Assembly (NCBI RefSeq): GCF_988243305.1
Contig: NZ_OZ547136.1
Direction: 5' to 3' (one strand)
Length of the DNA: 64,000 nt
Below are positions 7,955 through 12,872 of the stretch, piece after piece. The first letter of the stretch is position 1; the number at the start of each line of letters is the position of its first letter. The notes beneath the pieces are model-generated. The model did not search any database, had not been told where the DNA came from, and worked only from the letters and a program-made list of their open reading frames with translations. A program made the translations under genes and the position numbers.

Positions 7955-8210
7955 CATTCATAGTGCAGGGATCAAAATCATTCCCACTCAGCTATCAATG
8001 AGAAAATAAAATATAAATAAATCAATGCCTTGAAACAAACCACTTAGCAGATACCACGAAAAATACCATGTCTCAATAATAGAGCTGTCTACAGGCTGTT
8101 CAGACGAACAATATGGCCGCTCTACTCCTAATAGAGTCCTTAGCTCGGTCACATCACTAATTTCAACATAGATGTGAACAAAATGAGGCATCAACGCACC
8201 TATTCAGTTA

Positions 8211-9725
8211 GTGTATTTGATATCGTATGTGGCAACAAAAAATGGAGTTACAATCTTGAAAGTAAGCGAGTTATCTAGCCAAATTGGCCGACTTTACGGC
8301 TTAAACAACATCAACATAATTATGGGCCGAAACGGTGCGGGAAAAAGTCGTTTCCTTCGTGATATCGAACAAACAATCAGCCAGAACAAGCAGCAATTTT
8401 ATGTCCGGTATGTAAGTCCAGAGCGAGCAGGATCGTTCAAGCGTGATGGCACCGTCCTCACAAATATGAGCGACAACCCCGAATGGCTGAGGCACACTCG
8501 GGCAGTTAATCAGGCAAGCAACTTCAAAGCTGCATCGGCTATGCTATTTCGCGAGGCCGAGACGCTTTACTTACGTCGACTTGCCAATACTCCGGAAATT
8601 CGAACTGATCTAACGCGAAACTTTCAGACAGACCGATTAAGTAAAATTAATCAGCTTCTCACTAACATTTCGCTCGAGATGGGTAATGTCGATTATGAGT
8701 TTCGATCACTTGTAGATGGTCAGATTATTGATCCGGCCCAAATCAGTAGCGGTGAATCGGAAGCGGTTGCATTAGCCGCGGAAATCATCTATTTCTTCGA
8801 CACAATAGATCCGGAGAAATTCAACGTACTCCTCCTCGATGAGCCTGATGTACATCTGCACCCCGACCTCCAAGCTAGACTGGGCAAGCTGATAATCAGT
8901 ATGCTCGACGAATTTAGAACACACGCGAACAGTATTGCCATATGCTTATCCACCCATAGTTCCCCGCTCGTCTGTTCTCTTGCCGCCTCCCCATATGTAT
9001 CAATCGGCACGAAGAGCTTTGCAGTGAATGAAATCTCATTGATACCGGCCAGCGATGAACTTCGAAAGATTGCACCATTCTTCGGGCACCCCCTATCGCT
9101 TTCTCTTAGCGAAGACGCTGCATTAATTTTGGAAGGAGAGGACGACGAACGAGTCTGGCAACAAGCGGCCAGAACATCACAGGGTCGAATAAAAATCTTT
9201 CCCGTACTAGCAGGTAGCGTAGATCAACAGAGTCAACTTGAGGATTTTTGCGTAGACCTCCTTAGTACACTCTATGACAATCCAATCGCCTTTTCCCTTC
9301 GTGATGGCGATGGTGTAATCAACGAGTCGCTTGAACATCGCCTACCTCTTAAACGCTATCGCTTACGATGCTACGCTATCGAAAATGTTCTTTTGACTGA
9401 TTCATGCCTTGCAGTAATGAATGTTACATGGGTGGAATTTGTAGACGCAGCCAAAAAATGGGTTGAGGATAATCAAACACACTCCGACATAGCGTTGATT
9501 GCAGAACTAATGGAATCGAACGACCGATTGCGTCACAAGAAGATCAAGAAAATCCGCCAACTCGTCTGTGCTATTGTTGAGTGTAAAAAACCTTGGGAGG
9601 TAGTAGTTGGACAAGCAATCGGGGCATTGACCAGAGAAGACCTTGAAAACTCGAATATGTTGATCGATTTTCTTGGAGGAGAGATGGTCAGCGACGTCAT
9701 CTTCAGGGACGCAATAAACCCATGA
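8211..9725 (+). CDS. ABC-type ATPase (AAA_21/AAA_15-like) fused to a TOPRIM/DUF4435-like domain; OLD/PARIS/Gabija-like candidate defence nuclease
   Basis: 504-aa ORF. Walker A GRNGAGKS (8325-8348), ABC-signature-like ISSGESEAV (about 8742-8768), Walker B/D-loop VLLLDEPDVHLHPD (about 8836-8877), H-loop LSTHS. C-terminal region has ILEGEDDERVW (about 9125-9157), a DxD motif FSLRDGDGV (about 9291-9317) and YAIENVLL (about 9371-9394), consistent with an OLD-type TOPRIM/DUF4435 fold. The likely true start is the TTG at 8256, which has a GGAG Shine-Dalgarno 8 nt upstream; 8211 is an upstream in-frame GTG with no RBS. The locus is AT-rich. Confidence 0.6.
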   Translation: MYLISYVATKNGVTILKVSELSSQIGRLYGLNNINIIMGRNGAGKSRFLRDIEQTISQNKQQFYVRYVSPERAGSFKRDGTVLTNMSDNPEWLRHTRAVNQASNFKAASAMLFREAETLYLRRLANTPEIRTDLTRNFQTDRLSKINQLLTNISLEMGNVDYEFRSLVDGQIIDPAQISSGESEAVALAAEIIYFFDTIDPEKFNVLLLDEPDVHLHPDLQARLGKLIISMLDEFRTHANSIAICLSTHSSPLVCSLAASPYVSIGTKSFAVNEISLIPASDELRKIAPFFGHPLSLSLSEDAALILEGEDDERVWQQAARTSQGRIKIFPVLAGSVDQQSQLEDFCVDLLSTLYDNPIAFSLRDGDGVINESLEHRLPLKRYRLRCYAIENVLLTDSCLAVMNVTWVEFVDAAKKWVEDNQTHSDIALIAELMESNDRLRHKKIKKIRQLVCAIVECKKPWEVVVGQAIGALTREDLENSNMLIDFLGGEMVSDVIFRDAINP

Positions 9726-9740
9726 GAATGACCTGATACT

Positions 9741-10136
9741 ATGACCACGATTGATCCGCCCTCATGGTATCAGTATTTATTTTATAACCCGCCTCTCAAT
9801 ACACCAAGAGATTGCGGTAAAGTGGAGCAGCATGATTACCAGCTTTATCTGGCGATAAATGATATTGAGCATACGAAAACGAAAGCAATGTCATCTAAGA
9901 CCAATAGTATCTGCGAGCAGTTCCATAAAACGATACTGAACGAGTTTTATCAGGTGACGTTCCGCAAAAAGTTATATGATGATCTTGAAGCATTACAATC
10001 GGTTCTTGATGAATGGCGGGTTCACTATAATAATGAGCGAACCCATCAGGGAAAAATGTGCAGTGGCCGAACGCCGATGGAAACGTTACTTGATGGAAAG
10101 CACATCTGGGATGAGAAAAACTTAAGCCAGATGTAA
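9741..10136 (+). pseudogene. truncated DDE (rve/integrase-core) transposase remnant, 3' end only
   Basis: 131-aa ORF whose C-terminal ~85 aa (KTNSICEQFHKTILNEF...YNNERTHQG...GRTPME) match the C-terminal part of integrase-core DDE transposases (IS481/IS3-like), including the catalytic-E region. The N-terminal DD part is absent and the first ~50 aa look unrelated. It begins 16 bp after the ATPase stop. Confidence 0.55.
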
Positions 10137-10229
10137 TCTGACAGATACCTTTATAAATAGCCGGTAATTGTCAGATCAGGTCTGATCTTATACAACTTAA
10201 CTGTGTTATGAGCAATACTGAGGATAGAT

Positions 10230-11000
10230 ATGGAACCAGAGAAATTTGCTGAAACTGCAATAGGATTTACCAAAAGCCCTCTTGGTATCATTGCACTCTT
10301 TATTGTTCTCGTTTATGGATTTGCCTCTTTCGTCGTTGGCTTTGGTAATGGCTTATCAGAGCATATAGCTCCCCTTATTTATTTCATGGTTTTCTTTCCT
10401 GTCATTGTGTTTCTTGGCTTTCTCTGGCTTGTTGCGAAACATCATAATAAGCTTTACGGGCCGTCAGATTTCAAAGATGAAAATAATTTTTTAAGAGCGC
10501 AAATAGCTACAGCAGCATCATTGACCGCCGCCACAGCAAAACAGCCTGAAAATAGTGCAGGGGTCACTGAAAGCCAACTGCGAAAAATCGTCAACGTTGT
10601 ATCCAATGCAAAACGGCAGAGTAAGCATGAAAAATGGCGAAATCGTATTTTATGGGTGGATGATCGACCAGAAAATAATGTTTACGAAAGACAGGCATTT
10701 GAGGCACAGGGAATAGAGTTCGCTTTAGCTCTTTCAACTGACGAAGCCTTAGAATTGTTAAAAACAAATAAGTTTGCAGCTATTATTTCGGATATGGATC
10801 GCAAAGAAGGGGCGCAAGAAGGTTATGTCTTACTAGAAAGATTACGCGCAATGGGAGACAAAACTCCTTTTATGATCTATGCGTCCTCAGATCTACCAGA
10901 GCACAAGAAAATGGCGAGAGAAAGAGGTGCAATTGGCTCCACTAATCGAGCAGAAGAACTCTTTCAAATTGTCATGGGTGCGATTACCAATGGCTCATAA
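10230..11000 (+). CDS. membrane-anchored protein with C-terminal CheY-like receiver (REC)-like domain
   Basis: 256-aa ORF with SD GAGGA upstream. Two predicted TM helices (IIALFIVLVYGFASFVVGF; LIYFMVFFPVIVFLGFLWLV). The C-terminal ~120 aa follow a (beta-alpha)5 pattern with receiver-like acidic positions: ILWVDD at the end of beta1, AIISDMD at the end of beta3, FMIYASS at the end of beta4. The beta5 lysine is not obvious. Confidence 0.45.
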   Translation: MEPEKFAETAIGFTKSPLGIIALFIVLVYGFASFVVGFGNGLSEHIAPLIYFMVFFPVIVFLGFLWLVAKHHNKLYGPSDFKDENNFLRAQIATAASLTAATAKQPENSAGVTESQLRKIVNVVSNAKRQSKHEKWRNRILWVDDRPENNVYERQAFEAQGIEFALALSTDEALELLKTNKFAAIISDMDRKEGAQEGYVLLERLRAMGDKTPFMIYASSDLPEHKKMARERGAIGSTNRAEELFQIVMGAITNGS

Positions 11001-11214
11001 CAAAGCCATTAAATTCGCCCCCTACGGCTACGGTTGCCGGGCGCTCACAACGGCCAGTATCTCATTTGTCGATTTGATCGATCTCATTGTAAGCACTTCC
11101 GGCTAGACTATTTTGGAATACCGCCATTTTGTTGGTAATGGCTTTTATCTTTAGGCCATAGCCGATGTTATAGAGTTACGGCCTTAAAAATAGAAGTCAT
11201 ACACTCAATGAAAA

Positions 11215-11250
11215 ACCAATAAAAAATGCCAGTCAGCAAACTGACTGGCA
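11215..11250 (-). terminator. Rho-independent terminator downstream of guaA
   Basis: Inverted repeat tgccagtcag(11227-11236)/ctgactggca(11241-11250) with loop caaa; on the minus strand it is followed by a U-run (complement of the A-run 11211-11226). Confidence 0.7.
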
Positions 11251-11294
11251 TTAAAGTTAGTTGGAAAGGCTTAATTTACTATTTATAGCCAGTC

Positions 11295-12872
11295 CTACTC
11301 CCACTCAATGGTAGCTGGCGGCTTGCCGCTGATGTCATACACCACGCGGGAAATACCGTTCACTTCATTGATAATGCGGTTGGAAACGCGACCGAGGAAG
11401 TCATACGGCAGGTGCGCCCAGTGTGCGGTCATAAAGTCGATGGTTTCGACAGCACGCAGAGAAACAACCCAGTCATACTTACGACCATCGCCCATTACGC
11501 CAACAGAACGTACTGGCAGGAAGACGGTGAACGCCTGGCTGACTTTGTCGTACAGGTCCGCTTTACGCAGTTCTTCAATGAAGATGGCGTCAGCACGGCG
11601 CAGCAGGTCACAGTACTCTTTCTTCACTTCACCCAGAACACGAACGCCAAGGCCTGGTCCCGGGAACGGGTGACGGTACAGCATGTCGTACGGCAGGCCC
11701 AGCTCCAGACCAATCTTACGCACTTCGTCTTTGAACAGCTCTTTCAGCGGTTCAACCAGGCCCATCTTCATCTCTTTCGGCAGGCCGCCCACGTTGTGGT
11801 GAGATTTGATGACGTGTGCTTTACCGGTTGCAGAAGCAGCAGATTCGATAACGTCAGGGTAGATAGTGCCCTGCGCCAGCCACTTCACGTCTTCCAGTTT
11901 CAGCGCTTCTTCATCGAATACTTCAACGAAAACGCGCCCGATGATTTTACGTTTTGCTTCCGGATCATTTTCGCCAGCCAGCGCTGACAAGAAGCGATCT
12001 TCTGCCGGTACATGAACAATGTTCAGACCAAAGTGATCGCCAAACATATCCAGAACCTGCTCTGCTTCGTTGAGACGCAGCAGGCCGTTGTCGACGAATA
12101 CGCAAGTCAGGTTTTTACCGATAGCGCGGTGCAGCAGCATTGCAGTCACGGAGGAATCCACGCCACCAGAGAGGCCGAGGATCACTTTATCGTCGCCTAC
12201 CTGCTCGCGGATGCGAGCTACGGCGTCGTCGATAATTTTCGCTGGCGTCCACAGGGCTTCACACTGGCAGATATCACGCACAAAACGCTCCAGCATGCGC
12301 ATACCCTGGCGGGTGTGAGTCACTTCCGGATGGAACTGTACACCATAGAAGCGTTTTTCTTCGTTAGCCATAATGGCAAACGGGCAGCTTTCGGTGCTGG
12401 CTACGGTGACGAAGTCGGACGGGATAGCGGTAACTTTATCGCCGTGGCTCATCCAGACATCGAGCAGCGGTTTACCGTCTGCAGTCAGCGCATCTTCGAT
12501 ACCGCGAACCAGTGCGCTGTCGTTTACGACTTCAACCTGCGCGTAGCCAAATTCACGTTCGTTAGAGGCTTCAACGTGACCGCCCAACTGCATTGCCATG
12601 GTCTGCATGCCATAGCAAACGCCGAATACCGGTACGCCTGCTTCAAAGACATACTGCGGCGCACGCGGGCTGTTTTCTTCGGTGGTGCTTTCCGGGCCGC
12701 CGGAAAGAATAATGCCGCTTGGGTTGAAGTCACGAATTTGTGCTTCTGTCACATCCCACGCCCACAGTTCGCAGTAAACACCCAGTTCACGCACGCGGCG
12801 CGCAACCAGTTGAGTGTACTGAGAACCGAAGTCCAGAATGAGGATGCGATGCTTATGAATGTTTTCCGTCAT
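11295..12872 (-). CDS. guaA: GMP synthase (glutamine-hydrolysing)
   Basis: 525-aa ORF. N-terminus [36 protein letters not shown], class-I glutamine amidotransferase plus ATP-pyrophosphatase domain (SGGVDSSV), C-terminal PATIEWE. Confidence 0.97.

Follow-up and report, generated by a model that had tools for sequence, protein, structure and literature searches.

A compact ABC-ATPase/Toprim fusion protein at the guaA attachment site of Escherichia coli, a candidate self-contained nuclease of the OLD/PARIS superfamily

The locus and its gene

We analysed a window of 64,000 nucleotides from contig NZ_OZ547136.1 (NCBI RefSeq assembly GCF_988243305.1), in which a first-pass annotation, made from the letters alone, had proposed that an open reading frame at 8211-9725 on the plus strand encodes a single-chain ABC ATPase fused to a TOPRIM/DUF4435-like nuclease domain. 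The window is a piece of E. coli chromosome with the gene order ppx-pdeF-yfgG-yfgH-yfgI, insert, guaA-guaB-xseA, and is 100% identical to E. coli O169:H41 strain Res13-Lact-PER13-34. Compared with K-12 it carries a 3.3-kb insert at the 3' end of guaA (island 7991-11294), and the gene lies within this island. The encoded protein is a compact, insertion-less fusion of an ABC ATPase with a Toprim domain of AriB type, and is uncharacterised. The gene and its ribosome-binding site are placed as follows, with all residue numbers in this text given in 489-residue numbering from the TTG at 8256:

8244-8247, plus strand: Shine-Dalgarno sequence GGAG, 8 nt before the TTG, read from the sequence and kept in five hosts
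8256-9725, plus strand: coding sequence (stop codon included) for the 489-residue ABC-ATPase/Toprim protein WP_085458947.1, with a TTG start

The reading frame is real, and the TTG at 8256, put forward at first pass as the probable start of a 489-residue protein, is confirmed: PGAP, which names the product 'AAA family ATPase', begins translation there, and the equivalent site is used by all seven of the seven orthologues compared. The GTG at 8211 is ruled out as a start on the same grounds, and in E. mori the frame between 8211 and 8256 is interrupted by an indel. A TTG start behind a conserved GGAG fits a potentially toxic protein whose translation is deliberately kept low. Identity of the E. 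coli protein to its counterparts in Pseudomonas aeruginosa, Mesorhizobium and Sphingobium is 76-80%, and the gene is clearly under strong purifying selection. In the orthologue comparison, pairwise ratios of non-synonymous to synonymous substitution (dN/dS) lie between 0.05 and 0.13, with dS saturated between classes, which argues for functional constraint.

To place the protein in its family we aligned 90 full-length relatives, with identity down to 24%, taken from 148 clusters at 50% identity (E<1e-30) whose members are nearly all 470-520 residues long and match from end to end. Every motif listed at first pass is present, and their conservation in this alignment is far beyond chance. Invariant residues are K30, S31, S164, D195, P197, Q206, H234, S235, E293, D350 and D352, while E196, H200, H202, D296, E329, E376, N377, K431 and W447 are conserved in at least 94% of the sequences.

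The ATPase half

The domain and its motifs are located as follows:

8256-9041, plus strand: minimal ABC ATPase domain, residues 1-262 (Pfam and PDB profile matches; predicted local distance difference test score, pLDDT, above 90 in the model)
8325-8348, plus strand: Walker A GRNGAGKS, residues 24-31
8745-8759, plus strand: ABC signature-like SSGES, residues 164-168, aligning with the AriA signature
8826-8867, plus strand: Walker B and OLD/AriA-type D-loop VLLLDEPDVHLHPD, residues 191-204 (E196 in 98% of sequences)
8949-8960, plus strand: H-loop STHS, residues 232-235

The reading of this half as an ABC ATPase is supported by significant Pfam matches to AAA_15 (1.7e-10, 41.5 bits) and AAA_21 (2.2e-9, 38.3 bits), together with a match to ABC_tran (9e-5). 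The first two scores exceed the thresholds of 32 and 27 bits published for PARIS (PMC9122126). A profile of the family searched against PDB sequences finds AriA best (6e-16), followed by PtuA-type ATPases, the retron Eco8 OLD nuclease and GajA (1e-13 to 6e-12), and also matches TsOLD; the highest-ranked PADLOC models for the protein are PDC-M01A, AriA and AriAB. Structure prediction followed by a Foldseek search, as had been suggested at first pass, gave a confident result. The AlphaFold (AF2) model built from the 90-sequence alignment has a pLDDT of 93.8 and a predicted template modelling score of 0.82, and its best full-length matches, to the Eco8 OLD nuclease and GajA, come ahead of PtuA, AriA and Rad50/SMC heads.

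The Walker A lysine that the first-pass annotation numbered K45 is K30 here, and the Walker B motif that it listed is LLLDEPDVHLHPD, residues 192-204. Within the segment LLLDEPDVHLH, H202 stands at +7 from the Walker B aspartate; the alignment with AriA shows equal spacing, as do D299 and H306 of P2 Old (PMC7049728). The domain is reduced to its core. The stretch between the Walker A lysine and the signature serine is just 134 residues long and forms a short helical lobe in the model, and K30 lies 166 residues from the Walker B glutamate E196, whereas K39 and E393 of AriA are 354 residues apart. Neither the motif spacing nor the model contains a coiled-coil or dimerisation insertion in the ATPase of the kind found in AriA, TsOLD and GajA.

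The nuclease half and the linker

The remainder of the protein is divided as follows:

9066-9125, plus strand: inter-domain linker, residues 271-290, containing APFFGHPLSL (KIAPFFGHPLSL...), with pLDDT 68-70
9117-9398, plus strand: Toprim core, residues 288-381
9399-9722, plus strand: C-terminal helical domain, residues 382-489, with conserved K431 and KPWEVxVGQ (W447, G452)

The C-terminal half is supported as a Toprim domain of the DUF4435/AriB type by three independent lines of evidence, namely a PADLOC match to AriB, DUF4435 matches across the family and the predicted fold. When residues 262-489 alone are compared with PADLOC, AriB is the sole family matched (1.2e-5). Pfam DUF4435 (PF14491) reaches E<=1e-3 in eight of the 90 family members and E<=0.1 in 22. 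Modelled separately, residues 262-489 (pLDDT 91.6) form a Toprim core of four strands, E293 coming after the first and D350 and D352 after the third, and then a helical tail. The TOPRIM/DUF4435 proposal thus stands as to fold and family affinity but not as to a direct Pfam hit, because DUF4435 is non-significant for the protein itself (E 0.36, 11.0 bits, below the published 27-bit threshold). OLD-like_TOPRIM (PF20469), by contrast, is reached at E<=1e-3 in only one of the 90 members. A profile of the C-terminal domain searched against PDB sequences returned only spurious matches and none to Toprim or AriB at E<=10, so that the relationship is a remote one, visible only through family hidden Markov models (HMMs) and fold. 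Split, standalone relatives of this domain were sought by profile search among 5.8 billion proteins, which yielded only fragments of the same fused family.

The Toprim motifs are ILEGEDD (residues 291-297), DGDG (350-353) and YAIENVLL (373-380). From these we predict the metal ligands to be E293 and D296/D297 (ILEGEDD), D350 and D352 (RDGDG) and E376 (YAIEN). The acidic residues follow the same order, with similar spacing, as E26/D30/D88/E90/E122 of AriB and as the residues that bind metals A and B in TsOLD and BpOLD (PMC7049728). A C-terminal Toprim fold bearing the glutamate, the DxD and the second-metal acidic residues, which marks OLD-family nucleases, is present here, and its fold is also like that of AriB. 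By analogy with OLD proteins (PMC7049728), K431 may be the counterpart of their catalytic Lys/Arg.

Few stretches of the family are more conserved than the linker (H278 in 93% and L280 in 97% of sequences), yet it has the lowest pLDDT of the model. It could act as a latch or hinge.

Relationship to known ABC-ATPase/Toprim systems

The Walker A, signature, Walker B, D-loop histidine and H-loop of the OLD family in general are all found in this protein. By architecture and context it is like class 1 OLD, and by domain affinity it is like PARIS (class 4). With the class 1 proteins P2 Old and TsOLD it shares the arrangement of a single gene that has no helicase or reverse transcriptase partner. 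It differs from them in lacking the dimerisation domain inserted in their ATPase, in its length (489 residues against 528-586) and in its Toprim domain, which is nearer to AriB than to OLD.

PARIS consists of the ABC ATPase AriA and the DUF4435/Toprim protein AriB, which together amount to about 770 residues, against 489 here. The PADLOC AriAB profile (694 positions) scores 50.9 bits on our protein but covers only positions 219-524 (44%). Two defining features of PARIS are lacking: the DUF4435 score lies under its threshold, and the IS1/IS2 insertion of AriA, a coiled-coil/helical bundle that builds the hexameric scaffold and its trigger pores, is absent by both spacing and model. Single-gene, 'merged' AriAB forms of PARIS have already been described, and DefenseFinder uses a permissive merged-PARIS profile with a threshold of 20 bits (PMC9122126), which may already label proteins such as this one.

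Fusions of this general kind extend beyond the family. Five fused ABC-ATPase/Toprim proteins of 590-690 residues occur on IMG/VR contigs (loci L033, L034, L042, L043 and L049). None is a close relative, and in all five the match to the PADLOC AriAB profile is likewise confined to its centre. An xENYL-type motif, [H/N/C]x[I/V]E[N/S][Y/F/V][L/I], is common to them and to the CYAIENVLL of the family. They suggest that phages carry a wide set of PARIS-like fusions that still lacks a classification. The family described here is one compact branch of this radiation, which is broad and has been little mapped.

Gabija GajA (class 2) and the retron Eco8 OLD effector (class 3) have the same two-domain plan and, as noted, are the best full-length structural matches. 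They are 90-260 residues longer, however, and the Toprim domain of GajA contains a helical insert that is missing here. Their partners are also lacking near the gene: no GajB UvrD-like helicase is encoded in the island or at any related locus examined, and the island contains neither a reverse transcriptase reading frame nor an Rfam retron (msr/msd non-coding RNA) match.

HEC-04 (490 residues) and IbfA (518 residues), whose role in defence is experimentally validated, match the protein in size and architecture, stand alone and are carried on mobile elements. HEC-04 defends against T4 and T5, and defence is lost in K62A and E319A/D375A/D377A mutants. The spacing of K62, E319, D375 and D377 is nearly identical to that of K30, E293, D350 and D352. 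On comparison with HEC-04, membership of the HEC-04/IbfA family can nonetheless be ruled out, as the similarity is of the generic ABC kind. BLASTP of the two proteins aligns the P-loop only (E 0.007), and hhalign of HEC-04 with our family aligns just 114 columns of the ATPase C-lobe. The HEC-04 model PDLC04149, which scores 745.8 bits on HEC-04 itself, does not appear in the best 25 PADLOC matches of either the whole protein or the ATPase half alone, and gives no match to the Toprim half at E<=1. The HEC-04 gene (WP_044502283.1, 'ATP-dependent nuclease'; L016:3001-4473) resides in a P2-like prophage of E. coli strain 789, between the replication endonuclease and portal genes, which is the P2 old/tin hotspot; it is carried by 11 of 5,426 complete E. 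coli genomes.

These comparisons temper what had been said at first pass about compactness and novelty. The protein is indeed shorter than Old, GajA and AriAB, but validated HEC-04 is equally small. As for the suggestion of a distinct variant, a compact, insertion-less fusion that is not HEC-04 bears it out in part; its novelty was overstated, given a validated protein of 490 residues and the fused AriAB forms of PARIS.

A standalone gene carried by mobile elements

The island is delimited by two versions of the guaA 3' end:

7978-7990, no strand: left junction, the K-12-type guaA 3' end TCATTCCCACTCA, recognised by comparison with K-12 and present in host-specific version in five hosts
11295-11307, no strand: right junction, the present guaA 3' end CTACTCCCACTCA, with a TAG stop and a GAG (Glu) codon supplied by the island

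The left-behind guaA end and the island-supplied stop together indicate site-specific integration into guaA at its 3' end. The att (attachment) core of coliphage vB_EcoP_ZX5 matches TCATTCCCACTCA at the left junction (PMC9782041), and the guaA 3' end is also the attachment site of GIsul2, which the core likewise matches. No integrase is encoded in the 3.3-kb island. The island with its gene is carried by 27 of 5,426 complete E. coli genomes. In some E. coli strains the same guaA site also holds, in tandem, a prophage of about 40 kb. In K. aerogenes, E. bugandensis, E. mori and P. aeruginosa, too, the gene and its leader come first inside the host-specific guaA-end repeat, followed in E. mori by prophage lysis genes and in P. 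aeruginosa by an nSTAND NTPase and the Trb module of an integrative and conjugative element (ICE).

Elsewhere the gene travels in other company. In Mesorhizobium opportunistum a mini-island of 2,750 bp holds the orthologue and no other gene. Direct repeats of 49 nt, copies of the tRNA-Arg(CCT) 3' half, bound it on either side (L005:7426-7474 and 10176-10224); the mini-island carries no integrase and resembles a cis-mobilisable element. A 40%-identical member lies between the terminase and portal genes, beside HicAB, in a phage contig, and another distant member is found among recombinases, a PIN protein and TraG. Five IMG/VR contigs count toward mobile-element carriage as well. A plasmid search returned one record that proved to be a mislabelled E. 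coli chromosome, the remainder being weak ATPase matches. The context is the typical footprint of a mobile-element-borne gene for defence or competition.

The gene has no conserved neighbour. Its flanks vary over at least ten loci, among them those of P. aeruginosa, Mesorhizobium, Sphingobium, K. aerogenes, E. bugandensis, E. mori and two members that are more distantly related. It is a single self-standing gene with no conserved partner, and the remark made at first pass that no helicase or other partner lies adjacent holds for the island and for the related loci.

Discussion

The protein is probably a self-contained nuclease of the OLD/PARIS superfamily, borne by mobile elements, that works as an ATP-gated abortive-infection or defence factor with tRNA as its likeliest target. 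What the analysis shows is how the protein is built and folded, the conservation of its motifs, the purifying selection on it, and a gene that stands alone and rides on mobile elements; its part in defence, the way it is activated and what it cuts are inferred. In PARIS, which responds to the anti-restriction proteins Ocr and Ptr, AriA hexamers keep AriB inactive and free it upon trigger binding, whereupon AriB dimerises and cleaves tRNA, with tRNA-Lys as the target. P2 Old is reported to be a tRNase whose Toprim site opens, with stimulation of tRNA cleavage, when the tetramer is destabilised in a tetramer-to-dimer transition. Because the two halves of our protein are fused and the AriA insertion is missing, the hexameric scaffold, the trigger pores and the release of AriB cannot apply, and a switch of the kind described for P2 Old is the better analogy. 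In such a scheme, the ABC head, with its full catalytic set (K30, S164, D195-E196, H202 and H234), would dimerise head-to-head on ATP, and the ATPase half would act as sensor or switch. An ATP-dependent conformational or oligomeric switch would then uncover the Toprim half, whose predicted two-metal site would be formed by E293, D296/D297, D350, D352 and E376. The activated nuclease would cut nucleic acid, and the growth of the infected cell would halt. Host tRNA, the target of AriB and reportedly of P2 Old, is in our view the most likely one here, since it is to AriB that the nuclease half comes closest. The defence provided by HEC-04 at 490 residues indicates that a single-chain protein of this size can defend alone.

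Several points weigh against this interpretation. For a defence sensor, the amino acid identity of about 80% between classes of proteobacteria is unusually high. In alphaproteobacteria the gene is found amid housekeeping genes, although the Mesorhizobium copy lies in its tRNA-flanked mini-island, and no match was found in 50,697 deposited phage genomes. Among the models of PADLOC, NCBIfam and Pfam there is none that identifies the full-length protein as one of defence, and the NCBIfam scan gave only ATPase matches, far below cutoff. The putative mapping of the catalytic residues onto AriB draws on pattern and spacing rather than on residue-level superposition, and the family is experimentally uncharacterised. 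Our interpretation also leaves some features unexplained, namely that TTG is kept as the start codon, that the protein is so extremely conserved from class to class, that the gene has a fixed place at the edge of att-site islands, and that the APFFGHPLSL linker is conserved although modelled with low confidence.

On a more novel reading, the family would be a distinct, minimal and insertion-less class of effectors in which an intramolecular or dimer switch, with the APFFGHPLSL linker taking part, gates the nuclease and reads a conserved cue, the gene being standard cargo of elements that target guaA and tRNA att sites. We put this forward tentatively. In such a class the sensed cue would be cellular and conserved, as the cross-class identity suggests, and might be the state of tRNA or translation, or aberrant DNA, rather than a fast-evolving phage protein; taken jointly with the rest of the scheme, this is likewise tentative.

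A serious alternative, which we nevertheless judge rather unlikely, keeps the same architecture and defence role but has the effector cut DNA and not tRNA, in the manner of GajA and TsOLD. DNA nicking or degradation has been reported for GajA, TsOLD, BpOLD and the retron Eco8 holocomplex, and two of these give the best full-length structural matches; set against this is the affinity of the nuclease half for AriB.

It is less probable still that the protein is not anti-phage at all, and is instead a factor for maintenance or competition of the element (by addiction, or by excluding rivals for the att site) or a horizontally spread enzyme of nucleic-acid processing or repair. The exceptional conservation would suit such a role, as would the position of the gene, which is always the first beside the attL-like end of guaA-targeting elements and stands alone in the Mesorhizobium mini-island, and its lack of counterparts in deposited phage genomes. 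Housekeeping Toprim RNases also exist, for example RNase M5 (cited in PMC12409363). A core function is nevertheless hard to reconcile with the patchy spread of the gene among complete E. coli genomes, the nearest characterised relatives are all immune effectors, and the distant members are prophage morons beside toxin-antitoxin genes.

ABC-ATPase/Toprim nucleases, including Old, Gabija, PARIS, retron effectors and HEC-04, are among the commonest bacterial immune effectors, and work continues on how infection is sensed by the ATPase and the nuclease unlocked. The protein described here is a very small single-chain version, with 489 residues, no scaffold insertion, no partner, an AriB-like nuclease and a high-confidence model. 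It may offer a convenient minimal system in which to study the ATP-gated activation of Toprim domains and to ask if proteins of the superfamily generally act by cutting tRNA. Should it show no defence phenotype, one would still have to account for so extreme a conservation on mobile elements. There is also an annotation gap, in that the PGAP name is only generic and no PADLOC, Pfam or NCBIfam model spans the protein from end to end. We regard the find as sound but not surprising, and its novelty as moderate, since validated single-chain relatives of equal size exist and fused forms of PARIS are on record.

Other features of the island

The rest of the island contains the following:

7991-8255, plus strand: conserved non-coding leader of 265 nt at the left end of the element, about 74% identical to the P. 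aeruginosa copy
9741-10136, plus strand: C-terminal fragment of an IS481-family transposase, annotated as a pseudogene (NCBIfam 9e-23)
10230-11000, plus strand: 256-residue membrane/receiver-domain protein with N-terminal transmembrane helices and a receiver-like domain at its C terminus (Pfam Response_reg 2e-7)

The leader can be aligned, with indels, across five hosts from Enterobacteriaceae to P. aeruginosa. It contains no Rfam match to a regulatory RNA and no conserved open reading frame, and a sigma-70 scan found no upstream consensus promoter in it. RNAalifold gave a positive covariation penalty with compensatory pairs at 2 of 47, so that an RNA structure is unsupported. The leader may be an arm of the attachment site of the element, or a non-canonical promoter.

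That the ATPase-Toprim gene forms a two-gene system with the downstream membrane/receiver gene is very improbable: the two are co-oriented and 505 bp apart in E. coli and Klebsiella aerogenes, the only hosts in which they are paired, but the IS481-type remnant lies between them, a different gene is the neighbour in E. bugandensis, E. mori, P. aeruginosa, Mesorhizobium and Sphingobium, and the membrane/receiver gene occurs without the ATPase gene in Dickeya and Vibrio. The membrane/receiver protein is independent cargo and not a partner. The IS481 remnant may mark a deletion that removed the remainder of the element.

The 256-residue protein belongs to a highly conserved family whose members, 66-99% identical, occur scattered in Klebsiella, Acidithiobacillus, Pseudomonas, Dickeya, Vibrio and Nitrosomonas. 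They are found amid insertion sequence elements and toxin-antitoxin genes in places that lack the ATPase gene, and have no PADLOC match; the protein may be another single-gene cargo or defence candidate. In P. aeruginosa the orthologue of the ATPase-Toprim gene is adjoined, at the edge of the ICE with its TrbI/CagX/VirB8 genes, by a gene on the minus strand (L002:9885-13910) for a 1,341-residue helix-turn-helix and nSTAND-type NTPase protein, which is likely to be another immune sensor in the same cargo slot.

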